From Promethearchaeota archaeon (GTDB lineage Archaea; Asgardarchaeota; Lokiarchaeia; Sigyniarchaeales; SOKP01), in NCBI GenBank assembly GCA_048941265.1, contig JBHLNT010000039.1, forward strand, positions 1 through 29,720: a stretch of DNA of 29,720 bases, written 5' to 3'. Below the pieces are notes generated by a model. It worked only from the letters and a program-made list of their open reading frames with translations. It did not search any database and was not told the DNA's origin. The position numbers were made by a program, and so were the translations under genes. Shown here piece after piece: positions 250-26,108 of the stretch (positions within the stretch are counted from its first letter, which is position 1; every line of letters begins with the position of its first letter).

Positions 250-2160
250 TCAAACATCGTAAAATGTTGAGAGTGTATCTAATAATTCTTGCAAAGTCTC
301 AAGTTCTGGAATAAATAGAAAAGTACCTTGAATCTCAAATTCTTTAATAATTACGTTGGTTGTAATTACTAAAGATAATTCTTTCATTAATCCAATTTCT
401 TCATTTAAAATTTTAAACAATTTCATACCGGTATCTAAACTTATATCCGGTGGTTCGGTCATCAATCTCATATTTAATAGATTCCCTAAAGCTGTAGTAT
501 AATGACTAGCTAATATATGACCAAGTTCTTTCATCGCATCAATATACAGCTCTGGAAAATCTTGAACCGCATTCACTTTTCTCAAATCTATTTTTTCTTT
601 CCCATTATCACCAATTATAATAGATGTTAAACTAGTAATGTCTGGAACTTTAAATAATGTCAAAACTGTTGCTCTTGTCTTTCCTTGAACGCCACTCCAA
701 GAGACAAATAATTTCACATTTTTCTTACTCATTTTTTTAGCAAACTGGTCTATAGAAACGACCTCTACTGAAGGAATGTTGATATCTACACGTTTATTTA
801 TCATTTTTGCTAATGCATTCGCAGCATTGCCTGCTCCAATGTTTCCAACCTCTCTCAAAGCATCTTTCTGAATTTCTGTAAGCTCTAAATCGATGATTTT
901 ATCAAGCACTCCTCCAGGTTTAACATTTTCTATTTTTTCGTAAATATTCAATTTTTTGAAAAGATTTTCAATGGCTTTTAAGTCAGGTATATAGAAAAAG
1001 ATCCCTTTCATTTGTATATCCGTAACTTTTATTGCTGTCTTTATTATTACAACATATTCAGACTGCTCTTGGAGTTCTTTAGCTAAGAAATCACCCAAAT
1101 TGCCCGCATTACTCATCGTAAATTCAGGAACATCAAAAATCATTTTAGTATTTAATAAATCCGCTAAAGCTGAAGCATAGTGTCCTGCGAGAATATTACC
1201 AAATTCTGTGACTGTAGATATAGCAAAATCATCTAGATCTTTTTTAGATTTTACCTTATCAGGATTGATTTTTGACTTTTTACCTGCTAAATCTGCAATT
1301 AATTTCATTAATGGAGTCAACTCAAATACTTGTAGTATTGTAGATAAGGAAGGTTTTCTGATATGAGAAAAGATTCCACATACAATTTCTGAGGAATTTC
1401 CAAATTGAAGCGCTAGTTGTTCTAATGAAATTATGCCAACATCCGTAAGATCAACATCTATTCGTTTATTTATTAATCTTGAAAGAGCTGTGACAGCATT
1501 TCCACTTCCAATGTTCCCTACTTCTTGTAATGTATCTTTTTGCGTTTGAGTAAGTTTCATAGTACCTTGAACAATTGGTTGATAAAATTTATCACCAGTA
1601 GGAATTATAATATCTTCAGTCTTTTTTAAAGCAGGAAATCTTTCTGGAATATAACGTTCTGGTAATTGAGTAAAATCATGAGAGGCTCGCATTAACTGTT
1701 GATCTGGAGCTAAGGGTACAATTAGTGATTCTAAATCTAAAACAACATACGTTTCATGGTCTAAAACTCCTACTGATCTAATATATTTCATATCTATTTC
1801 CGTCTTTATAATAGCCGACTTATTTTGAAAAATTGAAACTGGAACTTCCTTCATACTGACAACTGAATCGACATAAATAGCTAGATTTATATCCTGTAGT
1901 TCTAGTAGTACTAGCCTAGAATCTTTAGTAAGCTTTACATAATCTCCATTTGAATGAAGTCTTTGTCCCAAAGCAATTATTGTATAAATTTTTCCTCTAA
2001 TATCTGCAACTCCCACAATAGATTTTTCTGCTAATGGTATTGGAATGATTAATTCTGGAACATAAATTTCTCTTACATCTTTTATTTCAAGATAATATGT
2101 TCTATCATCTACGTTGATCTCTACTAATTTTATGGTTTGTATATATTCATTTTCGATCAT
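250..2160 (-). CDS. CheW-CheC-CheC fusion (scaffold domain plus tandem CheY-P phosphatase domains)
   Basis: N-terminal ~150 aa is CheW-like (IPIPLAEKSIVGVADIRGKIYTII; IYVDSV; YIRSVG..VVLDLESL). Two CheC units follow, with E-x2-N motifs DTLQEVGNIGSGNA, STVTEFGNILAGHY, DALREVGNIGAGNA and DAMKELGHILASHY. Confidence 0.9.
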   Translation of the reverse strand: MIENEYIQTIKLVEINVDDRTYYLEIKDVREIYVPELIIPIPLAEKSIVGVADIRGKIYTIIALGQRLHSNGDYVKLTKDSRLVLLELQDINLAIYVDSVVSMKEVPVSIFQNKSAIIKTEIDMKYIRSVGVLDHETYVVLDLESLIVPLAPDQQLMRASHDFTQLPERYIPERFPALKKTEDIIIPTGDKFYQPIVQGTMKLTQTQKDTLQEVGNIGSGNAVTALSRLINKRIDVDLTDVGIISLEQLALQFGNSSEIVCGIFSHIRKPSLSTILQVFELTPLMKLIADLAGKKSKINPDKVKSKKDLDDFAISTVTEFGNILAGHYASALADLLNTKMIFDVPEFTMSNAGNLGDFLAKELQEQSEYVVIIKTAIKVTDIQMKGIFFYIPDLKAIENLFKKLNIYEKIENVKPGGVLDKIIDLELTEIQKDALREVGNIGAGNAANALAKMINKRVDINIPSVEVVSIDQFAKKMSKKNVKLFVSWSGVQGKTRATVLTLFKVPDITSLTSIIIGDNGKEKIDLRKVNAVQDFPELYIDAMKELGHILASHYTTALGNLLNMRLMTEPPDISLDTGMKLFKILNEEIGLMKELSLVITTNVIIKEFEIQGTFLFIPELETLQELLDTLSTFYDV

Positions 2161-2184: not shown

Positions 2185-3021
2185 TCAAATATCATTTTTA
2201 ATCATAATTCCTTTCCATATGAGTTCTTTTTCTGATTCTTCTTTAGAATGTTCAGAAAAAAAATCTGGTTGCCTAAATATTGAAATTTGACCCCCTTCCG
2301 AGAATTCATATACATAATCTAGCAGATCTTCCATACTTGTAAAATTGAAACCTGCTAAACTTAAATCAGTATTATTAACTATAAGTAAATCTTCACTATC
2401 GAATGGGGCATTTTCATCATTAACCTCTAACCATAATTCAGGAATTAGTTCTTTTTTATCAATTGTAATTGTACCGCCTAATGGGATATCGCGGTAAGTC
2501 TTATTAGAAGCGAAAATTACCCTGTCTGGAATAATTTTACTGGACTTAGCAGTTTTTATAATCACTTCTATCGCTTTAGAATATTTCTGAGAATCTAATA
2601 CATCATAGCATAGTATAAAAATGTAACTGTTTCCATCTAATTTAACGATAAGGTCCACCGAATCTTCTATATCTGATGTGAGATTAATCTTTATTTCCTC
2701 TAAGATAATATCTCTTATGTATTTAAGGAATTGGTAAAACCTCCATTTTACAGCCAATTTATCGTTTATCTCGCGACTAATAAAAATCTGATAAAGATTT
2801 TGTAATTCTTTTTCAGATAGTTTAGATAAATCTGCAGTAGTATCGTAATCATTACCTATAGTAACAAGATCATTTGATTTACTAGATTTTGATTTCTTTG
2901 CAATATCTTCTAAAAGAATCTTAAGTTCTCCTATCGTAAATTGGGGTGCGATACTTCCCGCTAAATAAAACAATCTTTTTTTGGATTTATCCTGTAATAA
3001 ATCATAGTATTGTATTGTCAT
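2185..3021 (-). CDS. Hypothetical protein in the che operon, possibly with a degenerate PD-(D/E)xK-like fold
   Basis: 278-aa ORF, 24 and 35 bp from its co-oriented neighbours, no TM segments. The central VDLIVKLDGNSYIFILCYD resembles a nuclease core lacking the ExK motif. Function unknown. Confidence 0.7.
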   Translation of the reverse strand: MTIQYYDLLQDKSKKRLFYLAGSIAPQFTIGELKILLEDIAKKSKSSKSNDLVTIGNDYDTTADLSKLSEKELQNLYQIFISREINDKLAVKWRFYQFLKYIRDIILEEIKINLTSDIEDSVDLIVKLDGNSYIFILCYDVLDSQKYSKAIEVIIKTAKSSKIIPDRVIFASNKTYRDIPLGGTITIDKKELIPELWLEVNDENAPFDSEDLLIVNNTDLSLAGFNFTSMEDLLDYVYEFSEGGQISIFRQPDFFSEHSKEESEKELIWKGIMIKNDI

Positions 3022-3056: not shown

Positions 3057-5081
3057 TTATCCAAAGAAATATGATTCTAAGTCTGAATAATTAACCTCTT
3101 TTCCGCTTATATTTTTAAGATAATACATGATTTCTTTTTCTTGATATGCTGGTACATTTTCAATAGAAAAAGAGATTATATATTCGTTTTCTTTATTTAA
3201 TTTCGAAATTTTATTTTTGGTATTAGAAGAAACTAATTCAAATGAATTTGGTATTGTGTCTGTAATTAATACATCCTTAATTTCAACGTTAGAATTATTT
3301 CTTACATTGATGCTTATTGCGAATTCATCTGCATCACGCCCAGGAAATATTTCTTTACCAATTGCCAAATTCCGACGCTTATGTGTAACTTTTATGGTAG
3401 GTTTTTTCATCTCAGATAGAGTATGCTTTACTACATAATATTCATGTAATTCATTTTGTTCCTGATTTTCATATCTCGCATAATAACAGCTAACTTCCAG
3501 CGGAAATTCATATGCCTTATTATAGTCTGGAGTAATGGCCTTAATTGGATAAATTATTTCTAAATATCCATCTATCGCTATTATATCTTGTATACGATTT
3601 TCTTGTAAATTAATTTTTAAATCTAAAGCATGTTCTTTGGATGGATCATCATCTTGAGGAGTAATATTAAGAACAACATCATCCAATTTAATATCTCCTG
3701 ATGATTTTTTAAATTTAAATTGTGATAGAGCCACGCTTGGCTTAAAATCTTCTGGAATTGTCTCATTAATTATTACACCTTTAATAGGAACAATACCAGT
3801 GTTGCGAATAATAATTTTACTAAATAATTCTGATTCTTCAAATGATTTGATTTCTTTTTGAGAAATATCTTTTTCAAAGTAAAACCCAATCACTTCAATA
3901 ACATTATCTTCCATTTTTAAAGTAACATCTGTATTTTTCTCAACAGCATAATCCAATGAATAAACTATCTTTCGTGAAAATTTAGGTTCATTTTCATCAT
4001 GAAGTTCCCATTTATTAGTACCAAATGTATCTCCAGGTCGTAAAATAATATTATTATGTTCTGAAGATAGATCTAAATCTATATATTTCGTGGATTTTGA
4101 TTTATCTGTAATTAAAATATTTTTCAAATACATAGTGAAGTCGCTGTGATTCGCGAATATAAATGAACATTCCCATTGATTTGGTTCAGTTTCTTTTTCT
4201 TCAACATCTATGACATGCTTTGCATGAGAATATGCTGTGAATTCAGCAATATCCGTTCCTGAGACCGTATAGCCTTGTAATTCATAAGTCATATTAAGAA
4301 TCCCTGTCCTAATCCCTTCTTTTTTTTCAGGGAATATTTTAGCAACAATAACTAATTCATTTTTCTCTCCGGGCTTTAGTTCTCTTAAAATCCATGTTAA
4401 TTTATTGTTTTTAATTTTAATATCTATTTGTGAGTCAGCAGAGCAATCTAAATCATAAAAATTCTTAGGGATTTCTTTTTCAGAATGAATATCTTTGATT
4501 ATATAATTCGACACATTATGTAAAGTAATTATAAATTTAACTGTGCTTTCCTGGCCATATAACAAAATATATCGATCGTCTTGATTACTTGAATAAGTTT
4601 CAGTGAAATCCTTAACTATTTTTATCTCTTCATTTAATATTTCTATTTTTTCATTAATTTCAAGAGGATCAGGTAAATTATCGAGATTATTAATATTATA
4701 TTTAATATTTTTATTAGTTTGTGGTTCAAAGATCCCAAGATTCAACTCGTTTTGAACGTCTAAATTGGTATATTCCGAACCTAAGATGTGAATTCGGGTA
4801 TCCCACATTCGATCTTTATATGAGTTATTAATGATAGATACATTACCATAACCATCAGCAGATTTTCTTTTCATATTGCGATCATAATGAAATTCTAAAG
4901 TCTCATTATTCAATATGGTAATTTCAGATATTTTATCTGCTGTTTTTGAAATTTGATCTTTCTCTTTAGTTTCAAATTTCGCTACTTGTTTTATTTCTTC
5001 CATAAATTTTAGTGGTACTCCCAAAAAATTAGTACCAACTTTGGTCCTTAATTCAGTTTGGCTAATACATTTAAATCCCAT
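3057..5081 (-). CDS. Cytoplasmic multi-beta-sandwich protein: adaptin mu/delta-COP homology (MHD)-like N-terminal half plus DUF11/Ig-like domains
   Basis: No signal peptide or TM. Repeated DUF11-like strands (IIIRNTGIVPIKGVIINETIPEDF; INVRNNSNVEIKDVLITDTIPNSFELV). MHD-like segments EITILNNETLEFHYDRN..GNVSI and LTWILRELKPGEKNEL..LNMTYELQGYTVSG. Alternative start at ATG 5003. Confidence 0.6.
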   Translation of the reverse strand: MGFKCISQTELRTKVGTNFLGVPLKFMEEIKQVAKFETKEKDQISKTADKISEITILNNETLEFHYDRNMKRKSADGYGNVSIINNSYKDRMWDTRIHILGSEYTNLDVQNELNLGIFEPQTNKNIKYNINNLDNLPDPLEINEKIEILNEEIKIVKDFTETYSSNQDDRYILLYGQESTVKFIITLHNVSNYIIKDIHSEKEIPKNFYDLDCSADSQIDIKIKNNKLTWILRELKPGEKNELVIVAKIFPEKKEGIRTGILNMTYELQGYTVSGTDIAEFTAYSHAKHVIDVEEKETEPNQWECSFIFANHSDFTMYLKNILITDKSKSTKYIDLDLSSEHNNIILRPGDTFGTNKWELHDENEPKFSRKIVYSLDYAVEKNTDVTLKMEDNVIEVIGFYFEKDISQKEIKSFEESELFSKIIIRNTGIVPIKGVIINETIPEDFKPSVALSQFKFKKSSGDIKLDDVVLNITPQDDDPSKEHALDLKINLQENRIQDIIAIDGYLEIIYPIKAITPDYNKAYEFPLEVSCYYARYENQEQNELHEYYVVKHTLSEMKKPTIKVTHKRRNLAIGKEIFPGRDADEFAISINVRNNSNVEIKDVLITDTIPNSFELVSSNTKNKISKLNKENEYIISFSIENVPAYQEKEIMYYLKNISGKEVNYSDLESYFFG

Positions 5082-5140: not shown

Positions 5141-7249
5141 TTAATAAATATCACTTAATTGTGAGTATTGTAGTTCGTTTAATTTAGAGTTAATGATGTT
5201 AAAAACATCAAGGATTAAACAAATAGATCCATCATTCAAGATCGTTGAACCTGAAATATGATCTGTAATAGAGTATTCTGATTGAAAAGGCTTTACCACC
5301 GCATCAATTTGTTCGAGAATTTCATCAGCAACTAATATTGCTGATGAGTTTTCGTCTTTTTGGCATAAAATGGCTAGTTTTGTATGTGAATTTTTCTTTG
5401 CTTTACCATTACTATTTAATTTTAAAAGCTTATCCAATTGAATTATTGGTAGCATACTATAAAGTGTATCATCCTTAGAGTTGATTTTATAAAATTCTAC
5501 CTCCTCAACATATTCCACTAATTCAGGGCTATAAAAATAGATTTGTTTAATATTTTCTGTAGGAATTGCGAAGATATCACCAGCAATCTTCAATAACTGG
5601 GCTTTGATAATTGCCCTACTAAATGGGACAATAACTGTGAATTTAGTGCCAATGCCTTTTTCCGTAAAAATCTGAAAAGAACCACCTAATTTTTTAACCT
5701 TCTCATCAACTATAGCTAAGCCCATTCCTCGTCCTGAAATCAAATCTGCATCTGAAAGAGTTGAAAAACCCGGCATCAAAAGAAATTTATTTAAAACTTC
5801 ATTTGAAAGAAGTTGCACCTCATTAGGAGTGTAATAACCTTTTTTAACAATATTTTCTCTTATCTTATCATAATTAATCCCTTTTCCATCATCAGAGATT
5901 TCAATATAGATTAAGCCTGCTCTACGATATGTCTTTAGTTTCAGAATACCCGTCTCATTCTTATTTTTGGAAATTCTCTCTTTTGGCGATTCAATTCCAT
6001 GATAAATTGCATTTCTAAGAAGATGAATGAGTGGTGAATTGAGTTCCTCTAAAATTTTTCTGTCCATTTCCACATTTATGCCTTCTAAGATGAATTTTAT
6101 TTTTTTACCAGTTTCTATTGCAACATCACGTACCAATCTTTTATATTTCCTAAAAGTTGATTCTACTCTGACAAGTTTTAAATCAAAAATAATTTCTTGG
6201 ATATCAAGTAGAGATTTATCAATATTATCAAAAAGTATACTTATCTCTTGTTCTTGTCTCTCTTTTAGAATTTGACTAATTTGATTTTTAATTATTATTA
6301 ATTCTCCAAAATAATCCATTAATTTCTCCAGTGTGTCAATATCCACTTTAATTCTTGATATAGTTGTTCTTTCATTTTGAAAATCGTCTACTATCTTAGA
6401 AACGGGTTCAATTTCCCCGTCAATAAATTCCTCCTCATAAGTATCTACTTTTTGACTTTCTATGTTACTGGCTAACGTTTTCTCAGTCTGTTGTTTAATG
6501 CTAAAATTAGTGAGAAGTGGTTCGAATTTCTCACGTGTTAATTCAGTTATAACCTTGTTATCAATTTCAAGAATCTCTTCTAAAATTTGAGAAATTTGTG
6601 CTGAAGTTTTGGGAGTAATAAAGTAGATTTCGAAATCTCTGTCAAAATTTCCTATTTCTAATAATCTAGGCTCGGGATTGCTATAACAGATTTGGCCAAT
6701 TTCATTTAGAGCCCTAAAAATAATAAATAATCTAACTTTTTTAAATACACAGGTAGCTTGTAATCTAATATATATCTTGAAATAGTTATTATTTTTTGCA
6801 CTTAATGTTTGTTTTATTTTATCTTGAGGAATTGGTTTAATAAAGGTAATTTCATATTCATTATCAAAATCTTCGAATGTATCTTTTATTTCTTCTAAAA
6901 ACTTTACGTCAATATCTGTGTTATCGCCCTTTTTTACTTTGGTCACTACTGTTCGAAGAACATCAAGACTTTCAAAAAATATTGAAGTAAAGCTACTAAT
7001 CTTTTCTGGTGAAACCTTGTTATTTTTAGCTTTATTCAAAAAATCTTCTAAAAAATGGCAAAATTTAGAAACATTGTTAAAACCTGCCATAGCAGTCAAT
7101 CCTTTTAAAGTATGGAATGCAAAAAAAAGTTCTTGGATTGGTTTTGTATTGCGAGGATTTTCTTCTAACTTAAGAACTTCATCTTCTACTTTTTGGATAA
7201 GATCTTCGGATTCATTTATAAACAGCTGAATATCTTCTTTAGTTGCCAT
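5141..7249 (-). CDS. cheA: Chemotaxis histidine kinase CheA
   Basis: Hpt domain with FHTLKG, P2 domain, dimerisation segment (IKVDIDTLEKLMDYFGEL), HATPase boxes HLLRNAIYHG / DDGKG / PGFST / SGRGMG, and C-terminal CheW-like P5. Confidence 0.97.
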   Translation of the reverse strand: MATKEDIQLFINESEDLIQKVEDEVLKLEENPRNTKPIQELFFAFHTLKGLTAMAGFNNVSKFCHFLEDFLNKAKNNKVSPEKISSFTSIFFESLDVLRTVVTKVKKGDNTDIDVKFLEEIKDTFEDFDNEYEITFIKPIPQDKIKQTLSAKNNNYFKIYIRLQATCVFKKVRLFIIFRALNEIGQICYSNPEPRLLEIGNFDRDFEIYFITPKTSAQISQILEEILEIDNKVITELTREKFEPLLTNFSIKQQTEKTLASNIESQKVDTYEEEFIDGEIEPVSKIVDDFQNERTTISRIKVDIDTLEKLMDYFGELIIIKNQISQILKERQEQEISILFDNIDKSLLDIQEIIFDLKLVRVESTFRKYKRLVRDVAIETGKKIKFILEGINVEMDRKILEELNSPLIHLLRNAIYHGIESPKERISKNKNETGILKLKTYRRAGLIYIEISDDGKGINYDKIRENIVKKGYYTPNEVQLLSNEVLNKFLLMPGFSTLSDADLISGRGMGLAIVDEKVKKLGGSFQIFTEKGIGTKFTVIVPFSRAIIKAQLLKIAGDIFAIPTENIKQIYFYSPELVEYVEEVEFYKINSKDDTLYSMLPIIQLDKLLKLNSNGKAKKNSHTKLAILCQKDENSSAILVADEILEQIDAVVKPFQSEYSITDHISGSTILNDGSICLILDVFNIINSKLNELQYSQLSDIY

Positions 7250-7282
7250 TTAATCCCCTTTATATCTTTTTTGTTTATAGAA

Positions 7283-7675
7283 TTATTTCTTATCCTTTAA
7301 TTTTAGAATTCGTTCCATAACTTCTATAATTTGTTCAGTTTTGAAAGGCTTTTGAATAAAATCCTTAGCTCCTTTTTTTGCCGCCTCAAGCACTAACGCT
7401 TCCTGGCCTAATGCGGATACTACTACAATTATAGCTTTAGGATCAACTTTTAAAAGTTCTTCAATTGCTTCAATGCCGCCCTTTTCTGGCATTACTAAAT
7501 CCATGGTAACCAAATCTGGCTTTAATTTCTTGTACATAGCGATTGCTTCCTTTCCATTTTTAGCTTCACCAACAACTTCTCCATAATTTGTTTTAGAGAT
7601 GACGTTCTTTAGTATATTACGTGTAAATTGGGCGTCGTCGACAATTAAAATTTTACTTTTATTATTTTTTGACAT
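7283..7675 (-). CDS. cheY: Single-domain response regulator CheY
   Basis: ILIVDD, phospho-acceptor TMDLVMP, VVSALGQ, FIQKPF; adjacent to cheA. Confidence 0.95.
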   Translation of the reverse strand: MSKNNKSKILIVDDAQFTRNILKNVISKTNYGEVVGEAKNGKEAIAMYKKLKPDLVTMDLVMPEKGGIEAIEELLKVDPKAIIVVVSALGQEALVLEAAKKGAKDFIQKPFKTEQIIEVMERILKLKDKK

Positions 7676-7697
7676 TTTTTTAACTCCTTTTTTTATT

Positions 7698-8222
7698 TTA
7701 TTTTGTTATAGTTTGTTGTTTATCCATAATGGTTTGTTCTATTTCGGTTAATATTTTACTCAAATCGAGCAAAATTCTAGGTCTATCTTTAAACTTAATA
7801 ATTCCTTTTATATATTCAATCCCAACACTAGTTTGGAATATTGGACTTAAACCTTCAACTAAATTAGCATCGATATTTACAATATCTAAAATACGATCAA
7901 CTAAAAATCCTGTATTGACATTATTTACACTAACAATAATGATATATTTTTGCTCTGAACTATATTTCTCTTCATTTTTATTAGAATTATGTATTTTATA
8001 TTCGTTCAGATTTAATTTTTTGCTCAAATTTACGATATGTATTATTTCCCCTCTGTAATTATAAATTCCGTCGATAAAATCATAACTTTGAGGCAATTTT
8101 CTAATTTGGCCCGCTATTATTATTTCTTTGGTATCGTATATATTAATCGCAAATTGTTCTCTTTCTGTTTCAAATAAGATAACCGAAAGCTTATCTCCTT
8201 GAGTATAATATCCTTCTTGCAA
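7698..8222 (-). CDS. cheW: Chemotaxis coupling protein CheW
   Basis: IRKLPQSYDFIDGIYNYRGEIIHIVNL, GFLVDRI, YIKGIIK..ILLDL. TTG start preceded by a purine-rich AAAGGGGA SD-like stretch. Confidence 0.93.
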   Translation of the reverse strand: MQEGYYTQGDKLSVILFETEREQFAINIYDTKEIIIAGQIRKLPQSYDFIDGIYNYRGEIIHIVNLSKKLNLNEYKIHNSNKNEEKYSSEQKYIIIVSVNNVNTGFLVDRILDIVNIDANLVEGLSPIFQTSVGIEYIKGIIKFKDRPRILLDLSKILTEIEQTIMDKQQTITK

Positions 8223-8275
8223 AATTTTATCCCCTTTTTTTTTACTTATAATACACTTTTTTTACTTACATTTTC

Positions 8276-9103
8276 TTAAATATTAAAGTATCTATTAATA
8301 TTCTTTTCAAATTTATAAAATGCTGTGATATCTCCATTAAAATTCTCAAGATGGTCTTTATATTCTTCCAAAAATTCATCTGCTATTAGGTACATATATC
8401 TTTTAAGAAGTGGAGTTACTTTTTCAACTAAGAATGCAAATATAATATTTTTTTTAGTTATGGTATAAAATAATTGATTTCCGAAATTGATCTCTTTAAG
8501 TTTTCCACCAGTCTCTTTACCTATAACAAATTGTGAGAAAGAAAAAAGTGCCGAAATAAAACCTCCTATTTGAACCTCTCCATCAATAATATCTGTCCTT
8601 TTTCCCATAATTTTTGTAAAAAGTGGACATCCCGCGGTATCTATAACAAAAATACCAATTATTCCCTCTCCTAATGGTATTTCGATTGAGTTTTTAATAA
8701 TATCCTTAATTTCATTGATAGAATGATTATCACAGCAAAACTTGATAATACTTTTAGAATGTAAATATAATTCAGAATATTGTAAAGGACTTTCTTTTTC
8801 ATAAAGATATATTAAAATTAATTTCTCTAATTCTTTTTTATTCTTGAAAAAATTAAGAAATACTGAAAAATCATCTAGTGGAATAATGGAATTTCCACTA
8901 TCTTTTTTAATAATCTCCATCTTGAAAAGATGTAATATATTTTGTATCATAGGCATTCCAATACCAATTTGGTAAAGCACTTCCGAGCTATAATCTACTG
9001 ACTCAATGTTTTCGAAAGTAATTTTGATTAAGCCAATCCCCAAAACTTCTAACATTCTAGGATTATTAACACTTCTATCCATGCTTATCATCGAGATTAC
9101 CAA
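8276..9103 (-). CDS. Longin-domain protein (C-terminal longin, possible second degenerate longin at the N-terminus)
   Basis: C-terminal ~125 aa: IIGIFVIDTAGCPLFTK, helix IGGFISALFSFSQ, strands LKEINFGNQLFYTITKKNIIFAFLV, helix IADEFLEEY..FNGDITAFYKFE. This matches longin topology as seen in Asgard ESPs. Start codon uncertain (TTG 9103 or a downstream ATG). Confidence 0.75.
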   Translation of the reverse strand: MVISMISMDRSVNNPRMLEVLGIGLIKITFENIESVDYSSEVLYQIGIGMPMIQNILHLFKMEIIKKDSGNSIIPLDDFSVFLNFFKNKKELEKLILIYLYEKESPLQYSELYLHSKSIIKFCCDNHSINEIKDIIKNSIEIPLGEGIIGIFVIDTAGCPLFTKIMGKRTDIIDGEVQIGGFISALFSFSQFVIGKETGGKLKEINFGNQLFYTITKKNIIFAFLVEKVTPLLKRYMYLIADEFLEEYKDHLENFNGDITAFYKFEKNINRYFNI

Positions 9104-9317
9104 ACTAGCTTTCTATAAATATATCCCCTAAAGATATGACAGTTCAGATATTGATATTTACTTTTTATAATCTTGATAAAGTAGGTATTTAAAAAATTAA
9201 TGAAATAGAAAATTGTAATGGTTCATGATACAAAAAAACTAAGAACAAATTCATTTAAATATAAAATTTTTTTAATAAGATTTTTACCAATAGAAGAAAT
9301 CAGAGAAAATGCATGTT

Positions 9318-9836
9318 CTAGTGTAATTCTTTCTCAAATACTTGAAAGTCAGTTGATGTAAATAAACAAAAAATCACTTCTTCCATCTGAGTATCTGTTG
9401 ATAAATAATCTTTCGCTGTTGCGATCATTATTTTTGCACATCTTTCAATAGGATAGCCAAATATTCCTGTAGAAATTGCTGGAAATGCAATTGACTTTAA
9501 GTTATGTTCATCCATTAATTTTAGACTGTTTAATGTAGCATTTTTCAATTTTTCATCTTCATTTCCCTCTCCCATTCTTGGCCCAACAGCATGAATTACA
9601 TAGTTCGCTTTTAAATTTCCCCCGGTAGTAATAACAGCCCCTCCTACGAATGTAGGAGATTTTTTGTCACATTCCTCTTGAATTTTAGGACCACCTTTCC
9701 GTCGAATTGCACCTGCTACTCCACCCCCCATAATTAATTGCGCATTAGCAGCATTAACAATTACATCAGTATCTAATTCTGTTATATCTCCTTGGACTAA
9801 CTTAATTTTTGAATTTTTTATTATTAATTCGTTCAT
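9318..9836 (-). CDS. Macro domain protein (MacroD/YmdB-type ADP-ribose-binding, O-acetyl-ADP-ribose deacetylase family)
   Basis: GDIT, IVNAAN, GGGVAGAI, VIHAVGP and AFPAISTGIFGYP signature motifs. Confidence 0.95.
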   Translation of the reverse strand: MNELIIKNSKIKLVQGDITELDTDVIVNAANAQLIMGGGVAGAIRRKGGPKIQEECDKKSPTFVGGAVITTGGNLKANYVIHAVGPRMGEGNEDEKLKNATLNSLKLMDEHNLKSIAFPAISTGIFGYPIERCAKIMIATAKDYLSTDTQMEEVIFCLFTSTDFQVFEKELH

Positions 9837-9982
9837 ATTAAAAATTTAAATATTGTGAATTTCAAATATATTTACTAATCATGGCATAATGATATATAAT
9901 AACAGTTTAAGATAACATAATAATCATATATATTCTAATATAATCAATTCATATAATAAACTTATATCTTTCGGCAATTTAA

Positions 9983-11182
9983 ATGAGGCTAAAGATAAGA
10001 CAGAAAAATTCATTAATTATTTTTCTTTTATTTATTAACTTATTTTTGTCTCTCACTTTTATTAAAACAGAGATTATAAGGGATGGACCCCATAAGAATA
10101 AAGATAATAAACAGGTTAATAGGAGTCCAAATCATTTGAAAAATTCAGGATTCTGGAATCTTACAAGGGCTCCAATATATATTGATAATAGCCGATCCAA
10201 TTGTAATTGGGAAAAAATTTCTTCAAAATATAATTGGTGTTATGGAAGCGGAACTTTGGAAGATCCATATATTATTGAAAACGTGATTATAAACGGAAAA
10301 AATTCTGGAAGTTGTATTATAATTAGAAATTCTAATGTTCATTTTATAATAAGAAATTGCATACTTTACAATTCTGGTTGGTCAATCTTTAATTGGGGTT
10401 CAGGTATCAAATTAATCAATACTAATAATGGGAAAATAGTTAATAACAACTGTTCATATAATAATGGGTATGGTATTCTACAGATTCAGTGTTCCAATAA
10501 TAATATTTCGCAAAATATAGTGAATTACAACTCTTACAATGGAATTTATAGCTGGAGAAGTGATAGCTGTTTAATTTTAAAAAATGAGATTAATTATAAC
10601 GAGATAAATGGTATATCTTTTTGGTTTTGTAATAGTAATAATATAACGGGCAATAAAATAAATGAAAATCAAAACGGAATTAATTTAATTATGAGTAATA
10701 ACAACTTTATCACTTTCAATTATTTGGTTGGGAATAATGTTAGTATTTATCAATTCTGGTCTTACGGGAATATTATAAGAGGAAATAAATATGAAAATGA
10801 AATACCAGCTCCAGAAACTCTTAATAATTTAGAGAATAACAATGATGAAAATAATGGAGACTCGAACGAATTTAAAGTTCAAGAAACTTATTATATAAGT
10901 CTAATAATAATTGGCACATCATTAGGTATAATAAGCGGGGGGATTATTGGTTATTACATTCAAAAAAAGAGAATTGAAAGGAAAAGCTTATTTTTATTCG
11001 ATAAACCCCAGAAGGGAAAACCTAAAGCAGAAACATCCTTTTTATTAGAGGAGAAGTTTAAATCTAAGCCAGACTTTGAATTTGTACCAAAAGGGGCAAT
11101 TATGAAATTCGAAGATATAAAAAAATTAATCATGGATCAAAAAGACGTGAAAAACAATTTAAATGAAGATAAAAAAAAATAA
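9983..11182 (+). CDS. Membrane-anchored right-handed parallel beta-helix (NosD/CASH-like) surface protein
   Basis: Hydrophobic N-terminal segment, GSGTLEDPYIIEN motif, Asn-rich ~22-aa repeats (GI.L..S.NN.I..N), acidic/Asn linker, C-terminal TM helix followed by KKR and a ~70-aa charged tail. Confidence 0.85.
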   Translation: MRLKIRQKNSLIIFLLFINLFLSLTFIKTEIIRDGPHKNKDNKQVNRSPNHLKNSGFWNLTRAPIYIDNSRSNCNWEKISSKYNWCYGSGTLEDPYIIENVIINGKNSGSCIIIRNSNVHFIIRNCILYNSGWSIFNWGSGIKLINTNNGKIVNNNCSYNNGYGILQIQCSNNNISQNIVNYNSYNGIYSWRSDSCLILKNEINYNEINGISFWFCNSNNITGNKINENQNGINLIMSNNNFITFNYLVGNNVSIYQFWSYGNIIRGNKYENEIPAPETLNNLENNNDENNGDSNEFKVQETYYISLIIIGTSLGIISGGIIGYYIQKKRIERKSLFLFDKPQKGKPKAETSFLLEEKFKSKPDFEFVPKGAIMKFEDIKKLIMDQKDVKNNLNEDKKK

Positions 11183-11208
11183 TCTTATATCTAAAATTTA
11201 AAAAAAAA

Positions 11209-11928
11209 TTAGCTTTGTTGTTGATCCTTTTTGAAAATTTCATCTAATTTGGCTTTATCTTCATCAGACATCTTGCTCATAGCTTCCATTTGTTGTTGCA
11301 TCAAAATTTTCATGAAATTATTACTTATGATTTGGTTTAAGACAGGTAATGCAATTCGCATTCGAGTGAGCTCATAATTCATCAACTTTGCTATATCTCT
11401 CATTTCTTTCAATTCATCTTTTGTCATACCCTCCTGCCCTATTCCTGGACATTCAACATCAACAACCGTAAAATTTTTTCCATCGAATTCTAATGGGTAT
11501 GTTCGACAACTTAACGGACGATTTTCATAGATTAAACATTTTTTTTGTTCCGTATTGTAAAGTGGACATTTTTCTTCCAATAATTCATCAATAGGAGGTC
11601 CAGTAAGCGTTTCTTTCGGTGATTTTTCCTCATCCTTTTTTTGTGGGGCTAATGGTTTTAAAATTAGGTCAAAAACACCATCAGGCTTACCATATACATC
11701 CAAGTAAGGAAGAAAATTTGCTATTACTCCAGTTCGAGCCCACATCTCCAAATCCCAAAGTGTTATAGGGATAGGGCCTCTAGCAAGACAACATTTATCG
11801 CATCTCGTACATTTAAATGTAAATTTCGCTTTTGATTTTTCTGGTTCAGCCTGTTCATCTACAGGTTCTTCCTTTTTAACCTTTTCTTTCTCTTTAGAAT
11901 TTTGATTTTCTTGGTTATTTTCAGTCAA
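11209..11928 (-). CDS. YkgJ-family cysteine-cluster protein (CxxCxxCC, putative Zn or Fe-S binding)
   Basis: FKCTRCDKCC, CPLY, CLIYENRPLSCRTYP, CPGIG. TTG start. Confidence 0.9.
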   Translation of the reverse strand: MTENNQENQNSKEKEKVKKEEPVDEQAEPEKSKAKFTFKCTRCDKCCLARGPIPITLWDLEMWARTGVIANFLPYLDVYGKPDGVFDLILKPLAPQKKDEEKSPKETLTGPPIDELLEEKCPLYNTEQKKCLIYENRPLSCRTYPLEFDGKNFTVVDVECPGIGQEGMTKDELKEMRDIAKLMNYELTRMRIALPVLNQIISNNFMKILMQQQMEAMSKMSDEDKAKLDEIFKKDQQQS

Positions 11929-13992: not shown

Positions 13993-15333
13993 ATGGATGT
14001 TATTATCAAGAAAAAAATTATCTTATGGATAATACTATCAATTAATTTAATTCTTGCGTTTTTTATAGGATTAGCAATTCCAGTAATAGAAACATCTTCG
14101 GCTATTTTAATTGGACTTGTTGGAATTCTTGGATTAATAGTTTTCAATTTTTTGATTATGGAACTTTTAAACAGAGAATATAATAATTCGAATTTATATG
14201 AAAAAACATTGATCTGGTTATTTTTATCTCTAAATTTATTATTTGCATTTATAATGGGATTCACTATTCCTTTTATGGAATCAAATGCGAAATATAACAT
14301 GGGAATTGTCATGTTGCCACTATTAATAATTCTTAATTATATTTTAGTTGATAGATTTCATTTTTACCTTAAAATTGCTAATACTAAGCATAACGCTATT
14401 AAAACAAATGATAATGGACAACTGCAAATCACTCTTAATAAGAAAAAAGAAACTGATGGTTCCAGTAATAAGAAAACAGTAATCGAATTTAACGGGAAAA
14501 CTTACATTTTTACTGTAAGGTCATTAATTATATTAGCTGTTGGAGCCCCTCTCTTATCATATGGAATATATCAATTTTTTGATACCCCTATGAATTACTG
14601 GCTCCATGAAATAGTAGTTAAGCAAACAGTTTTTTTCTTAAATCTATTATTTAATATGGGAGTAGAATCGAAATATGTCCCGGTTGGTACCCATCATTGG
14701 AGTTTTATCATTCCCGGCAAAGGTAATATTTATTTTCAAACCTTTTGTACAGGTGTACAAGCCATATGTGTTTTTGCAGGAATAATTATTTGTATCCCCC
14801 ATTCTCAAGATCCTAAAACGAAAGAAGATATCATATGGAGAAAAACAAAGGCATTAATAATTTCGTCAGTAATATTTTATGTAGTAAATATCATTCGAAT
14901 GATAATTCAAATCTATTTGTATTACATTGGATATGCATGGGAAGATATTCATTACTCCATTAGCGCAGCTAGTTCTTTCATTGCAGCTATTATAATTCTT
15001 TTACTTCACAAGTGGATTCCCGAATTCATTCTTTCAATAATATATGGAGGTGCTTTAGTGGATAAAAGAGTTAAGGATAATCGTAAGGACTATGTAGCTG
15101 AAATGGTTGACGAGACCAATGAAGTGCCCCTTAGTATAATGAGAAAAGTCTTAGGAATGAAAAAGAAAACTTACCAAACTGAAATGGTTCCATGGGCAAA
15201 AAAATTCGGATATATAATCGAAGGAGATTTGTTAAGAATACCCGTAGATGGTAACAATAAATTTAAAGAGATGTTAAATTGGGAGGAACCTTTTGTATCA
15301 AAAGTAGCTGAGAAGAAACATAAACAAAATTAA
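13993..15333 (+). CDS. Archaeosortase/exosortase-family membrane protease with extra N-terminal TM repeats and a C-terminal soluble domain
   Basis: Multiple TM helices and a candidate Cys-Arg-His triad in family context: FCTGVQA, VVNIIRM, EDIHYSI. Confidence 0.88.
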   Translation: MDVIIKKKIILWIILSINLILAFFIGLAIPVIETSSAILIGLVGILGLIVFNFLIMELLNREYNNSNLYEKTLIWLFLSLNLLFAFIMGFTIPFMESNAKYNMGIVMLPLLIILNYILVDRFHFYLKIANTKHNAIKTNDNGQLQITLNKKKETDGSSNKKTVIEFNGKTYIFTVRSLIILAVGAPLLSYGIYQFFDTPMNYWLHEIVVKQTVFFLNLLFNMGVESKYVPVGTHHWSFIIPGKGNIYFQTFCTGVQAICVFAGIIICIPHSQDPKTKEDIIWRKTKALIISSVIFYVVNIIRMIIQIYLYYIGYAWEDIHYSISAASSFIAAIIILLLHKWIPEFILSIIYGGALVDKRVKDNRKDYVAEMVDETNEVPLSIMRKVLGMKKKTYQTEMVPWAKKFGYIIEGDLLRIPVDGNNKFKEMLNWEEPFVSKVAEKKHKQN

Positions 15334-16722: not shown

Positions 16723-18246
16723 TTAAGAAATGTATCTTAAAAGTAAATCGCTAGTTCGATACATGAAATCTGGCATTAATTCATTTATCCGCTTTTTTTT
16801 AATTTCTTCATCCATTAAAAAGAGAACAAAGAAATTATAATTACCAATTCTGATTTTTTTAAATAGAATAATAGAATCTGCAATTTTAAAAATAGCTTCA
16901 TCTTGCTTTAAAGCACGAAATTCTGAAAAAATTTTAAATAATAAAGTAAACTGAGGTGCTGTAATTTCAAATATGTTTCTTATTTTTTCTTCATCCGAAC
17001 CTTCTCCAGCAAGTTGGATTTCTGATATTCTAAATAGTTCACCCGATAAAAAATCTGCTAGTACCAATCCTTCATTATTTAATAACAAAGATAACGAAAT
17101 ACCAGCACGATTTGAAAATTTTTTGAGAATTAGATTAATTAATTTTCTATTGGGACTTAATTTTGAAATACCCGAAGAAAAAGCTTGCAAAATGCTAAAT
17201 ATTGAAAAGATACTGGTTATAAATATTTCAGGCTTCTTATTAGGGATAAGCTCAATTAGTTTTGATTTTATAAATTGAATATTTTCTTTGATTTCTTGGT
17301 TATTTATAATATCCTTGTCTCCTTTAGATAAAATAAATATGATAGGGGTATCCATCTTAAATTCTTTTAATGCAATTTTAATTTGTTGAAAATATTCTAT
17401 ACTTTCATCAAAACGGGCTTTATTCTTGATATCAATAAAGTAAAAAAGTAGATCTGTTTCATATAAATAGATTTGAGACTTAGTTAAATATTTTTGCCTT
17501 GAAGCTATTTGTCCTCCTAAATCCCAAAGAAAAATAGATGCTCCAAGTGCTTGTATTGATGAAACATTAGCTCCTACAGTAGGTTTTAAGCCAATTAATT
17601 TAGAATATTTTCTATCAACAGATAATAAAAACGATGTTTTACCCGAATCATCTAACCCTGCAAAGACAACTTTTATTCTTGTCGCATGCGTAATTGGAGC
17701 ATAAGGTTTTTTTTCAATTTCAATCAATTTTAACAGTAATTCCTTAAAGACTGGTTCAATTAATTCAGAAGATTTATATCCATTTGAAATTTCTTTATCA
17801 AATTTTAAAAGAAAGTTAAATACAAGAGACTTAAGCTGATTTAAATTATTATATAAAAAACTCCGCCTATTTCTGTCTACTAAAATCGAAAATGCTGCTG
17901 CGATGGGTTCTTGAGGCTCTTTAGACTTCTTAAATTTAATAAAATGAAAGATTGTCAAAGATGTAAGATTAAAATCAGGAAAAGGTAATATTGCAAAGTA
18001 AGGTAATTTTTCTGAGTCCTTATCTACATCAATGAATTCTTGATCTCCCGCCATCATACTAAGATTTTTTATAGAAATCTGAGTATAATCTCTGTAACTT
18101 AATCTAATTATATTTTGTAGTCTAAATTGCTCTGCCTCCTCTTCAGAAACCTCTTTAGGGAACATGTAAATAGGTTGGGGGCCAAATTTATCAAAAGCTG
18201 AAAAGAGAAGCCCTTTTATGACTGATTTTTCGATGAGTTCTTCCAT
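16723..18246 (-). CDS. uDENN/longin-like domain + Arf/Rag-like small GTPase + C-terminal roadblock-like domain fusion
   Basis: G1 GLDDSGKTS, G2 KPT, G3 WDLGGQ, G4 SKGD, G5 TSIF. N-terminal LLFSAFDKFGPQPIYMFP motif; C-terminal SLLLNNEGLVLA roadblock-like start. Confidence 0.85.
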   Translation of the reverse strand: MEELIEKSVIKGLLFSAFDKFGPQPIYMFPKEVSEEEAEQFRLQNIIRLSYRDYTQISIKNLSMMAGDQEFIDVDKDSEKLPYFAILPFPDFNLTSLTIFHFIKFKKSKEPQEPIAAAFSILVDRNRRSFLYNNLNQLKSLVFNFLLKFDKEISNGYKSSELIEPVFKELLLKLIEIEKKPYAPITHATRIKVVFAGLDDSGKTSFLLSVDRKYSKLIGLKPTVGANVSSIQALGASIFLWDLGGQIASRQKYLTKSQIYLYETDLLFYFIDIKNKARFDESIEYFQQIKIALKEFKMDTPIIFILSKGDKDIINNQEIKENIQFIKSKLIELIPNKKPEIFITSIFSIFSILQAFSSGISKLSPNRKLINLILKKFSNRAGISLSLLLNNEGLVLADFLSGELFRISEIQLAGEGSDEEKIRNIFEITAPQFTLLFKIFSEFRALKQDEAIFKIADSIILFKKIRIGNYNFFVLFLMDEEIKKKRINELMPDFMYRTSDLLLRYIS

Positions 18247-18337: not shown

Positions 18338-19306
18338 ATGCTTGAAAAAATTGTTGATAGTATTAGGAATAATGAAAATATCCTTGAAAAAAAAGGACTA
18401 GCTCCTATTATTGATTTTGTTGATGTAAATTCCTTTAAAAATTTAACTCGTATACATTCTGATATAGGTGAAGATTCGGCTGCAATTAATTTTAATGAGA
18501 GTTATATTTTAGTTACTACTGACAGAATTAGAACAGATTTCATAGAAAATTTTCCCTATGGTGCAGGATTTAGCGCCATATTGGTCAGTATTGATGATAT
18601 ATATGCATGTGGGGGATTTCCATTAGCTGCAAGTCTGATAATATCATATGAAGATGAGGACAAGGGAAAAAAAATTTTAGAGGGAATTTGTGATGCTTCA
18701 AAAAAGTTCCATGTTCCCATTATACGAGGTCACACAAAAGCTCGTGGAAAAACATATGAGTTGAGTTCAACAGTGATAGGGGAAATTAAAAAGAATGATT
18801 ATATCTCAGCCCGTAACGCTCAAGTAAATGATAAGATAATATTGGCGGTTGATTTTGAAGGAAAAGTTGGTAAGGCTAGTAGATATTATTTTGATACAAC
18901 TACCTTCAAAAATTCTGAAAATGTCCTACGGAAAAGAAAAGCGATGAATATCATTGCACAGAGCCATCTCGCTCATTCATCCAAAGATATTTCAAATAGT
19001 GGGATATTCGGTACAATATTACAATTAATTCAATATTCAGGAGTAGGAGCAAATATTAATATAAATAAAATAGTAATTCCTCCGATATTAAAGGAATTAG
19101 ACTATACCATAGAAATTTATACCAAAATGTACTTAACAACATCATTTATTTTAACTGCTCCAGAAAAAAATTGCGAAAAGATTTTGGAAATTTTTAAGGA
19201 TTATGGACTTAATGCAAGCATCATAGGAAAAATTATAAAAAATAAAAATCTGTTAAGACTTAACGAGGGAAATGAAAATAAATCGGTTGATGTTATCAAA
19301 TTTTAA
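18338..19306 (+). CDS. AIR synthase-related (PurM/ThiL/SelD fold) ATP-utilising protein, similar to the methanogenesis-marker-2/sll0787 group
   Basis: IGEDSAAI, TTD, SIDDIYACGG.P, IIRGHT, KDISNSGIFG motifs. Confidence 0.85.
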   Translation: MLEKIVDSIRNNENILEKKGLAPIIDFVDVNSFKNLTRIHSDIGEDSAAINFNESYILVTTDRIRTDFIENFPYGAGFSAILVSIDDIYACGGFPLAASLIISYEDEDKGKKILEGICDASKKFHVPIIRGHTKARGKTYELSSTVIGEIKKNDYISARNAQVNDKIILAVDFEGKVGKASRYYFDTTTFKNSENVLRKRKAMNIIAQSHLAHSSKDISNSGIFGTILQLIQYSGVGANININKIVIPPILKELDYTIEIYTKMYLTTSFILTAPEKNCEKILEIFKDYGLNASIIGKIIKNKNLLRLNEGNENKSVDVIKF

Positions 19307-19353
19307 GTGATAAATGGATAAAAATAAATCGTAATAAATTTTAGTATAATTAA

Positions 19354-19848
19354 ATGATATTTCTAGAATGCTTAATACCAGATTCACCTGGAACTTTAAT
19401 AGAGTTAATTAAACCTATCTCTAATAATCATGGAAATATCTATGGAATATTACATTTCCATGATAGAAAAAAAGAGAATATGATTCCAGTAAGTGTTAAT
19501 TTTGAGATTCCATATGAATTGATGGAAACCAGTTTAGAAAATATCAAAAAAGAGCTGAATGAAAAGAACATTCAGATTGAAAAATTAACTGTAGGTGAAA
19601 AAGAAAAAAGACATTTAGTTATATTATTAACTGGACATGTGTTTGACACAGATATCGTTGATACAATAAAACGTCTGGCGTTAAAAAATATCAAGGTTCC
19701 AGAATTGCAGGCTAAATTCACAGAAATTAGTGATGTTAGTAACGTAAAGTTGAAATTAGTCTATCCAGAGTCGATGACTGAAAACGACCTAATAAAGGAA
19801 GTATCTTTAATTTGTAAAGAGAAAAATTTATTCTTAATTAGATCTTAA
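19354..19848 (+). CDS. Tandem ACT-domain protein, putative allosteric regulator of homoserine dehydrogenase
   Basis: PDSPGTLIELIKPIS..GNIYGILH and ILLTGHVFDTDIVDTIKRL match the archaeal stand-alone ACT protein typically encoded next to hom. Confidence 0.85.
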   Translation: MIFLECLIPDSPGTLIELIKPISNNHGNIYGILHFHDRKKENMIPVSVNFEIPYELMETSLENIKKELNEKNIQIEKLTVGEKEKRHLVILLTGHVFDTDIVDTIKRLALKNIKVPELQAKFTEISDVSNVKLKLVYPESMTENDLIKEVSLICKEKNLFLIRS

Positions 19849-25160: not shown

Positions 25161-26108
25161 TTGGAGTATCTAAAAGAAGAGAAAGTAATCTCGAAAAAGA
25201 TACTGTTCACTGGACTCGATGATGCTGGGAAAACTTCGATAATCCTAGCCCTTCAGAGAGAATTTTCTAAGATTGCAAATATTCAGCCTACAAGAGGTGC
25301 ACAAAGGCGAATCTTTCAGTTTTTAGGTAAGGAAATTAGTGAGTGGGATCTAGGAGGACAAACAACTTACAGAATCTCATATCTTAAAAATCCAGATAAA
25401 TTTTTCGCAGGAACCGAAATTGCAATATATGTAATTGATGTTATAAATAAGGAACGGTTATCTGAATCATTAAGTTATTTAAAAGATGTAATACTTCAAT
25501 TTAAAAAATTGCATATTACTCCTCCTATTAATATTTTTTTCCACAAATTTGACCCGACTTTACCTAAATCCACTAGAGAAGAATTGGGAACTCTTACCCT
25601 CAATTTAAAGAAGAAAATTAATGATTTAGTCAGATATAAAAAAATTTACTTCTTTGAGACCTCAATTTATAGTTTACCTTCTATTATGAATGCCATTTCT
25701 GAAATTTTATTAGAACTTTATCCTAGATCCAAACTTATTAAAAAAACAATTGAAGAATTTGCAATAAAATTAAATTGTGAAGGAATTGTAATCATTGATA
25801 AAAACTCTCTTATCATAGGTTCCTATTTTAAAGATCATGAAACTGGTGAGATTCTTACGAGGTCAATGCCCTACTTCTTGACATTAAATGACAGTTTTCA
25901 GCTGGAAGGAGTTGACCAAACAAATCAAGATCAGATGGTTGTTCATAGATTTGGGAAATTTTTTTTATTTAAAGAAATCCTATTAAAAGAAAGTGGCACA
26001 CCCTATTATCTTCTCATAGTTAAAGGTGATAATCCTTGGGATCTTTACTTCAGCAATAAAGACTTTAGAGCTTTTATCCACATGTTAAGGGATTTAATAT
26101 ATAAATAG
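25161..26108 (+). CDS. Arf/Rag-like small GTPase with C-terminal roadblock-like domain (paralogue 1)
   Basis: GLDDAGKTS, PTRG, WDLGGQ, HKFD, TSIY; C-terminal GIVIIDKNSLIIGSY domain. TTG start. Confidence 0.9.
   Translation: MEYLKEEKVISKKILFTGLDDAGKTSIILALQREFSKIANIQPTRGAQRRIFQFLGKEISEWDLGGQTTYRISYLKNPDKFFAGTEIAIYVIDVINKERLSESLSYLKDVILQFKKLHITPPINIFFHKFDPTLPKSTREELGTLTLNLKKKINDLVRYKKIYFFETSIYSLPSIMNAISEILLELYPRSKLIKKTIEEFAIKLNCEGIVIIDKNSLIIGSYFKDHETGEILTRSMPYFLTLNDSFQLEGVDQTNQDQMVVHRFGKFFLFKEILLKESGTPYYLLIVKGDNPWDLYFSNKDFRAFIHMLRDLIYK

Follow-up and report, generated by a model that had tools for sequence, protein, structure and literature searches.

The P0001 gene and its domain layout

The window analyzed here is a 29,720 nt stretch of DNA from a Promethearchaeota archaeon (assembly GCA_048941265.1, contig JBHLNT010000039.1, positions 1 to 29,720), and it contains a chemosensory operon that is read from its minus strand. 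Directly 3′ of cheA, this operon encodes P0001 (3057..5081, minus strand), a soluble protein of 674 amino acids with an isoelectric point (pI) of about 5.1. Model calculations and sequence comparisons indicate that the first large domain of P0001 is very probably a remote relative, by common descent, of the mu-homology domain (MHD), which occurs in the medium subunits of the eukaryotic AP and COPI adaptor complexes.

P0001 begins with a conserved N-terminal peptide (residues 1–25; 5007..5081, minus strand, as are all P0001 features that follow), which has the consensus MGFKK[IV]xxDELKTKx[GS]PNF[LI]G[IM]P[IL]R and is predicted to dock onto orphan-278, the product of the next gene. A variable linker (residues 26–52; 4926..5006) connects the peptide to the folded body; the linker is modelled with low confidence (pLDDT 42–52), and its mean conservation is 0.42, compared to 0.72 for the peptide. 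The MHD-like all-beta domain spans residues ~53–310 (4152..4925), as delimited by fold models, Foldseek alignments and the mapping of PF00928. It is followed by a beta-sandwich domain at residues ~311–399 (3885..4151; DSSP, pLDDT ~90) and by a beta-rich third domain at residues ~400–567 (3381..3884; AlphaFold2 model), both with approximate limits, and then by an immunoglobulin (Ig)-like DUF11 domain at residues ~568–662 (3096..3380). The DUF11 model (PF01345) matches residues 585–648 with 39.1 bits against a cut-off of 24.6, placing the domain within this family; the NCBIfam model TIGR01451 also passes on the C-terminal domain (31.1 against a cut-off of 24), and DUF11 is present in all 45 P0001 orthologs. 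The protein ends in a conserved tail (residues 663–674; 3060..3095) with the consensus SELESFFxG and a helix at residues 665–672, where L668, E669 and S670 are kept in at least 90% of orthologs. This acidic-aromatic tail may be a second docking motif.

The MHD-like region was first proposed in a first-pass annotation made from the sequence alone, which placed it at residues 53–283. These residues do correspond to 4233..4925, and the six sequence strings that were quoted in its favor are all found (residues 53–83, 126–130, 136–142, 195–207, 228–243 and 262–278). The fold match described below upholds the domain but not its proposed end, which probably lies near residue 310 (position ~4152 of the window). 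The annotation was also right that Ig-like domains of the DUF11 type follow the region and that a signal peptide is absent; P0001 has no hydrophobic N-terminus or membrane-like segment, and its highest 19-residue Kyte-Doolittle mean is 1.21.

Fold of the first large domain

Full-length P0001 was modelled with AlphaFold2 from a 45-sequence ortholog alignment (A1), yielding a confident, all-beta structure with a mean pLDDT of 83.5, in which only residues 1–48 are poorly defined. Residues 47–317 were folded separately, using a second alignment (A2), to locate the mu match (pLDDT 82.2, pTM 0.72). When this region was compared to the PDB with Foldseek, all 41 listed matches were the C-terminal domains of mu1, mu2, mu3A or mu4 from AP-1, AP-2, AP-3 and AP-4, with E-values from 3e-9 to 4e-6; the alignments cover 241 to 276 columns, and the targets are themselves about 250 residues long. 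The corresponding TM-scores were 0.44 to 0.56 by query and 0.49 to 0.59 by isolated-domain targets. Similarly, 30 of the 40 matches listed for full-length P0001 were AP mu subunits (E ~1e-10, ~250 columns), and TM-scores against isolated mu C-terminal domains reached 0.54 to 0.71 by target. The 10 non-mu matches in that list, which include the Ig domains of PrgB, integrins, axonemal proteins and alpha-2-macroglobulin, had TM-scores of at most 0.19 and root-mean-square deviations (rmsd) above 28 Å. P0001 is therefore predicted to contain an all-beta fold of about 250 to 280 residues that superposes on mu C-terminal domains over its whole length. Moreover, the region is retained in 89 relatives of near-full length; together with the specific match of its model to mu-adaptin C-terminal domains, this conservation indicates that the region is more than a chance resemblance.

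The hallmark of the MHD is its topology, where subdomain B is inserted within subdomain A, so that the chain rejoins the first sandwich with its final strands. In relatives of P0001, long helical insertions occur at positions equivalent to residues ~130–180 (loop ~150–178), which is the predicted junction of the two subdomains. The end-to-end Foldseek alignment and this insertion hot spot are consistent with an inserted-subdomain topology, which is itself predicted. Some orthologs reach 1000 to 1600 amino acids through a helical, coiled-coil-like insertion at this position (L025, 5525..9184; L027, 9001..11172; P0093–P0116); P0001 is a short form, as compared to these long orthologs with an insertion inside the MHD-like domain.

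Sequence link to PF00928

At the sequence level, P0001 is connected to the MHD family PF00928 (Adap_comp_sub) through its paralogs. Of 301 sampled Asgard genomes, 62 contain a PF00928 match at E ≤ 0.01, and in 13 genomes the match exceeds the curated cut-off and falls in paralogs of P0001; none of 14 control genomes is matched. The intact open reading frames (ORFs) that it recognizes are 353 to 779 amino acids long, mostly about 580 to 780, and one weak match lies in a frame with stops. When 20 of the matched loci were fetched, the A1 profile of P0001 orthologs found all 20, comprising 19 paralogs (E-values from 1e-34 to 1e-73) and one ortholog (1e-266). P0001's own genome carries three paralogs, and the weak PF00928 match in this genome also falls in a paralog. 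The chain of computed matches from P0001 to its paralogs, and from these to PF00928, can be read as transitive distant homology. Together with the Foldseek matches, it supports the first-pass reading of P0001 as a prokaryotic relative of the cargo-binding module of AP/COPI coats.

Several observations weigh against this homology. PF00928, which has a gathering cut-off of 31.6 bits, does not match P0001 itself at E ≤ 1, and it matches only one of the 45 orthologs, where P0087 scores 26.3 bits, below the same cut-off (residues 168–275 aligned to profile positions 122–234). Most PF00928 matches span only profile positions ~120–240, which also score as DUF11, so that part of the signal could be general Ig-like similarity; two listed matches extend further, to positions 14–231 and 38–233. 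TM-scores of 0.5 to 0.6 with an rmsd of 5 to 6 Å are moderate, and the MHD region of P0001 is acidic (pI 4.9). A search of PDB sequences with the P0001 family profile returned nothing meaningful (best E 0.2).

One alternative is that P0001 is simply a series of sequential Ig domains of the DUF11/CARDB type, whose resemblance to the MHD is generic or convergent and does not reflect common ancestry. DUF11 at residues 585–648 is the sole domain of P0001 that Pfam and NCBIfam recognize; the middle of the MHD-like domain (residues ~179–269) is also DUF11-like in P0001 and scores as DUF11 in many orthologs, and the ESM Atlas neighbors of residues 47–317 are all archaeal 'DUF11 domain-containing protein' clusters; the moderate TM-scores also fit this reading. 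However, the mu subunits that make up every listed match of the region model align end to end over both subdomains, whereas proteins with multiple Ig domains, such as PrgB and the integrins, align with TM-scores of at most 0.19. Further, the helical stalks of relatives are inserted exactly at the predicted two-subdomain junction, and PF00928 passes its cut-off in paralogs. Within the phylum of L031, the one non-Asgard relative of P0001, PF00928 matches only 2 of 201 genomes and passes its cut-off in none, which shows that its signal is not general to DUF11-rich archaea. The model is thus not confined to sequential Ig domains, as it has significant matches to MHD structures, and we regard a generic or convergent resemblance as improbable.

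A further suggestion of the first-pass annotation, that the C-terminal Ig-like domains resemble adaptin appendages, was dropped. Alpha_adaptinC2 (PF02883, cut-off 27.6 bits) has no match in P0001 and only sub-threshold matches in 11 of the 45 orthologs (best E 5.9e-4), and the family also matches four bacterial controls at a loose threshold.

The chemosensory operon

The operon order is longin-like gene, CheW, CheY, CheA, P0001, orphan-278 and CheW-CheC, and all of these genes lie on the minus strand. Upstream of P0001 are CheA (5141..7249), with Hpt, P2, dimerization, HATPase and CheW-like domains, and then CheY (7283..7675) and CheW (7698..8222), both assigned by Pfam. At the operon head, a 275-residue protein (8276..9103) has a longin/roadblock-like C-terminal half, according to sub-threshold evidence. 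Downstream of P0001 are orphan-278, a protein of 278 amino acids (2185..3021), and a 636-residue CheW-CheC-CheC fusion (250..2160; CheC 8.6e-39, CheW 2.6e-18), a FliY-like phosphatase that would tether the dephosphorylation of phosphorylated CheY (CheY-P) to the receptor array.

This arrangement is conserved across 31 related loci, of which 30 have at least 300 bp of flanking sequence and were scored for their CheA neighbor. CheA is directly upstream of the P0001 ortholog in 29 of these 30 loci, and orphan-278 is directly downstream in 25 of 26; the 275-residue protein is present in 22 of 25 loci, and 22 of 24 have the CheW-CheC fusion. Both linkages, to CheA and to orphan-278, are broken in L031, a locus labelled Thermoplasmatota by its submitter, whose relative of P0001 is 24% identical and lies without che genes. 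The whole architecture of P0001 also occurs without che genes in the three paralogs of its own genome; as a result, the fold alone does not imply a chemosensory function.

Orthologs of P0001 (E ≤ 1e-60) are present in 14 of the 301 Asgard genomes, all within one GTDB family, and these 14 carriers are exactly the family's 14 CheA-positive genomes, although the genomes are kin and the counts are not independent. CheA is found in 37 of the 301 genomes, including 23 in other families that have no P0001 ortholog. The submitter labels of the ortholog-bearing metagenome-assembled genomes (L001–L030) vary among Hodarchaeota, Hermodarchaeota, Helarchaeota, Odinarchaeota, Bathyarchaeota and Promethearchaeota; they are probably unreliable, because all 14 carriers in the GTDB sample fall within one family.

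The usual archaeal output components were not detected alongside P0001. CheF (PF04283) has no match in any of the 301 Asgard genomes, nor in P0001; archaellin is found in 9 of the 301 genomes, none of which is among the 14 ortholog carriers. In P0001's own genome, which is 91% complete, neither CheF nor archaellin was found. Overall, considering the conserved operon and the co-occurrence with CheA, a che-related role for P0001 is probable.

Related loci illustrate how the operon varies. In L022, which at 76% identity is the closest relative, the downstream part of the operon further encodes a 189-residue protein of unknown family, CheR, CheD, CheC, a receiver, CheB, a Roadblock-Ras fusion and another receiver; this part corresponds to the region beyond the start of our window. 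The fusion (18642..19607, plus strand) joins Roadblock/LC7 and Ras GTPase domains (Ras 1.7e-35, Robl_LC7 5.4e-5), and its place in the L022 operon indicates that a small GTPase belongs to the che cluster. In L021, a complete chromosome, CheY, CheA, the P0001 ortholog and the orphan are kept (6273..11892); CheW is left only as a 28-residue remnant match, and neither the 275-residue protein nor the CheW-CheC fusion has a match nearby.

The C-terminal half of the 275-residue protein (~residues 142–269) has paralogs elsewhere in the genome, with sub-threshold matches to Fuz_longin_1 (6.2e-5), Longin (4e-4) and Sybindin (0.013); one of these paralogs is fused to a P-loop GTPase-like domain. The remainder of the window includes genes for TBP and MtrH, as well as three small GTPase genes of the Gtr1/RagA/Arf type (16723..18246, minus strand; 25161..26108 and 26246..27184, plus strand), one of which (507 amino acids) has an N-terminal extension of ~190 residues that matches no family. 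This gene content, taken with the named relatives, points to an Asgard archaeon of the Promethearchaeota/Lokiarchaeia type. A 446-residue ORF (13993..15333, plus strand) has no Pfam match at E ≤ 0.001, and a 120-residue ORF on the opposite strand overlaps its start.

Predicted docking of the N-terminal peptide onto orphan-278

Residues 1–25 of P0001 are strongly conserved in all 45 orthologs. In particular, three residues (M1, F3 and G21) never vary, and at least 93% of sequences keep G2, K4, L11 and P23. The peptide appears specific to the che-linked orthologs; profile positions 1–28 are matched in none of the 24 paralog ORF entries, some of which are possibly cut by locus ends.

A three-chain complex was predicted from custom alignments, consisting of P0001 residues 1–317 (the scored partner), orphan-278 and CheY. 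The P0001–orphan-278 pair received an ipSAE of 0.67 (0.67, 0.64 and 0.70 across runs), compared to 0.00 for the best of three controls and 0.00 when orphan-278 was replaced. Of 80 solved complexes, 58 attained the score mark that this pair reaches, as did 2 of 110 mismatched pairs; this calibration is only rough for custom alignments and three chains. The runs share at least 69% of their contacts, and the partner's pLDDT is at least 60. On the P0001 side, the predicted interface comprises residues 1–8, 11–12 and 16–24; on the orphan-278 side, it comprises residues 80, 94–98, 141, 171–182, 195–200 and 226–232. Moreover, 13 of 27 orphan-278 residues at the interface are conserved at 90% or more, compared to 49 of 251 elsewhere (Fisher p = 0.0016).

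Two considerations lower the weight of this prediction: the interface conservation partly depends on the alignments that were given to the model, and the complex score expresses a model's confidence and is not a measurement. On balance, the calculations lean towards binding of orphan-278 by the N-terminal peptide, with little to spare.

Orphan-278 is single-copy in the genome, as compared to the three paralogs of P0001. It has no match in Pfam, NCBIfam or PDB sequences, and its 213 relatives are all unnamed, with no Pfam family on record. An ESM Atlas search returned only scores below 0.9, with faint hints of a PD-(D/E)XK fold.

The peptide has a second feature of its own. P0001 starts with Met-Gly in 43 of 45 orthologs (5076..5081, minus strand), and the next residue is the invariant Phe. 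A glycine in this position is reminiscent of N-myristoylation sites in eukaryotes; residue 6 of P0001 is Ile or Val, unlike the usual small residue of the myristoylation motif.

Proposed role of P0001

We propose that P0001 is likely a non-enzymatic chemosensory scaffold or adaptor, a role and target that we infer from the fold match, the operon conservation and the predicted docking. P0001 would be a cytoplasmic scaffold that consists of a 25-residue docking peptide, a flexible linker, an MHD of about 260 residues and three Ig-like beta domains, the last of which is DUF11. It would serve as a dedicated accessory of a chemosensory operon that has no detectable CheF or archaellin partner. According to this proposal, the N-terminal peptide would clamp orphan-278, while the MHD/Ig body could provide a platform for binding peptide motifs, much as the MHDs of eukaryotes recognize short linear motifs. 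P0001 would then link the orphan-278 module with the receptor/kinase array, or else with an output other than the archaellum. Of these elements, the fold match, the transitive PF00928 link, the conserved operon and the joint occurrence with CheA are computed results. Taken as a whole, a chemosensory scaffold with an MHD-like domain and a docking peptide is the explanation we favor, and we consider it reasonably likely.

P0001 might, more specifically, act as an output adaptor, which we consider unlikely on the present calculations. The boldest version of this idea, which we consider unlikely as well, is that P0001 and orphan-278 are together the missing output adaptor of the motor-less chemosensory system of Lokiarchaeia. 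The MHD would read a short motif in a membrane receptor or effector and couple CheA and CheY to the longin and Roadblock-Ras genes, and thence to membrane or actin remodelling. If this were true, a signalling scaffold of archaea would be the ancestor of the module with which eukaryotic vesicle adaptors read their cargo.

Alternatively, P0001 could be an output adaptor that binds CheY-P directly and so takes the functional place of CheF or FliM, with its N-terminal peptide employed in the manner of FliM. The 37 CheA-positive Asgard genomes, all without CheF, leave room for such a protein, and the peptide bears a loose likeness to the N-terminal motif (LSQxEIDxLL) with which proteins of the FliM type bind CheY. 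The family consensus of P0001, however, does not keep that motif, and a FliM-like CheY-binding N-terminus was dropped as a candidate. With CheY as the third chain and orphan-278 replaced, the complex prediction scored 0.00; this gives no support for binding between P0001 and CheY, and it is not evidence against it. We judge direct CheY-P binding to be doubtful, somewhat more so than the generic Ig resemblance considered above.

The least probable alternative is that P0001 is a true proto-coat cargo adaptor that partners adaptin-like and longin proteins in membrane trafficking and lies in the che operon through co-regulation only: it has the fold of an AP mu subunit, there is a longin-like gene at the operon head, Adaptin_N-type HEAT-repeat matches occur on other contigs of the genome (two above cut-off), and all AP domain types are reported from Asgard archaea in the covered part of Eme et al. 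2023 (PMC10307638), but no adaptin-like gene lies nearby, Adaptin_N also matches 3 of 14 non-Asgard controls, there is no match to PF01217, the sigma/mu longin family (a search whose control was uninformative), the ortholog is present within its GTDB family only where CheA is (14 and 14 genomes), and its che-specific N-terminal peptide is predicted to target an orphan encoded in the same che operon.

Relation to earlier work

An MHD in Asgard archaea has already been published at the level of a domain catalogue; the covered part of Eme et al. 2023 (PMC10307638) lists the mu C-terminal domain as present, sparsely. That domain and the one in P0001 probably belong to the same superfamily. The covered part of the catalogue does not mention that Pfam misses most of the cheA-linked orthologs (1 of 45 is matched), that they carry an N-terminal peptide, or that they are tied to che genes. 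Likewise, no MHD-like protein is described from a che operon of Asgard archaea in the literature covered. Because the domain type was already reported in Asgard archaea, the novelty here lies in its conserved chemosensory setting and in the predicted partnership between peptide and orphan. What is new is the position of the ortholog directly after cheA, its exact co-occurrence with CheA in one GTDB family, and a 25-residue peptide with predicted docking to orphan-278.

With these results, a fold of the adaptor type gains a genetic context that is both defined and conserved, namely a chemosensory operon that has no detectable CheF or archaellin. The predicted partner and its docking peptide turn a domain-catalogue entry into a testable functional hypothesis, and they make P0001 and orphan-278 candidates for the output of Asgard chemotaxis. 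Further, the sparse detection of the mu domain by Pfam may understate a larger Asgard family that lies mostly below the Pfam threshold.

Comparison with known systems

The Frz chemosensory pathway of Myxococcus acts on MglA/MglB polarity, and it is an example of a non-flagellar output that runs via a Ras-like GTPase and a roadblock protein. The likeness to our system is the Roadblock-Ras fusion in the che operon of L022; the Frz accessory proteins have no homology to P0001, and the link is one of analogy only. In archaea, the adaptor CheF connects CheY-P with ArlCDE, the switch of the archaellum. Similar to CheF, P0001 is a non-enzymatic accessory encoded in an archaeal che operon, and it is a possible functional analog; the two differ in that CheF has no sequence match to P0001 and that no archaellin was found in the 14 carrier genomes.

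Among DUF11 repeat proteins (PF01345/TIGR01451), P0001 shares a C-terminal domain that passes both models, and it differs from them in its lack of a signal peptide or membrane segment, its che operon setting and its MHD-like front domain. In the MHD proteins outside the AP complexes, including delta-COP, the FCHo/Syp1 muniscins and the stonins, the MHD is a portable module that binds peptide motifs on different partners. These are coat and endocytic proteins of eukaryotes, unlike P0001, and they are absent among the listed Foldseek matches.

The closest comparison is with the mu subunits of AP-1 to AP-4 (AP-2 mu2, PDB 9FIW, 6BNT, 5WRK and 1BW8; mu3A, 4IKN). P0001 does not have the make-up of an AP or COPI medium subunit, as it has no longin domain and no adaptin-like gene nearby; a separate, weakly longin-like gene instead sits upstream of CheW. 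An AP mu subunit combines a longin domain with an MHD; here, a longin-like and an MHD-like domain are found in separate genes. In place of an N-terminal longin domain on the same chain, P0001 has a docking peptide before its MHD and three Ig-like domains after it. Its domain is acidic and prokaryotic, and its gene belongs to a chemotaxis operon, all of which set it apart from the AP mu MHD. Cargo recognition of the mu2 type relies on a conserved pocket for the YxxPhi tyrosine motif and on basic phosphoinositide patches; the P0001 region has an acidic pI of 4.9 overall. Even so, the two domains share an all-beta build and a length of about 260 residues, Foldseek aligns them end to end, and paralogs of P0001 pass the Pfam cut-off of PF00928.

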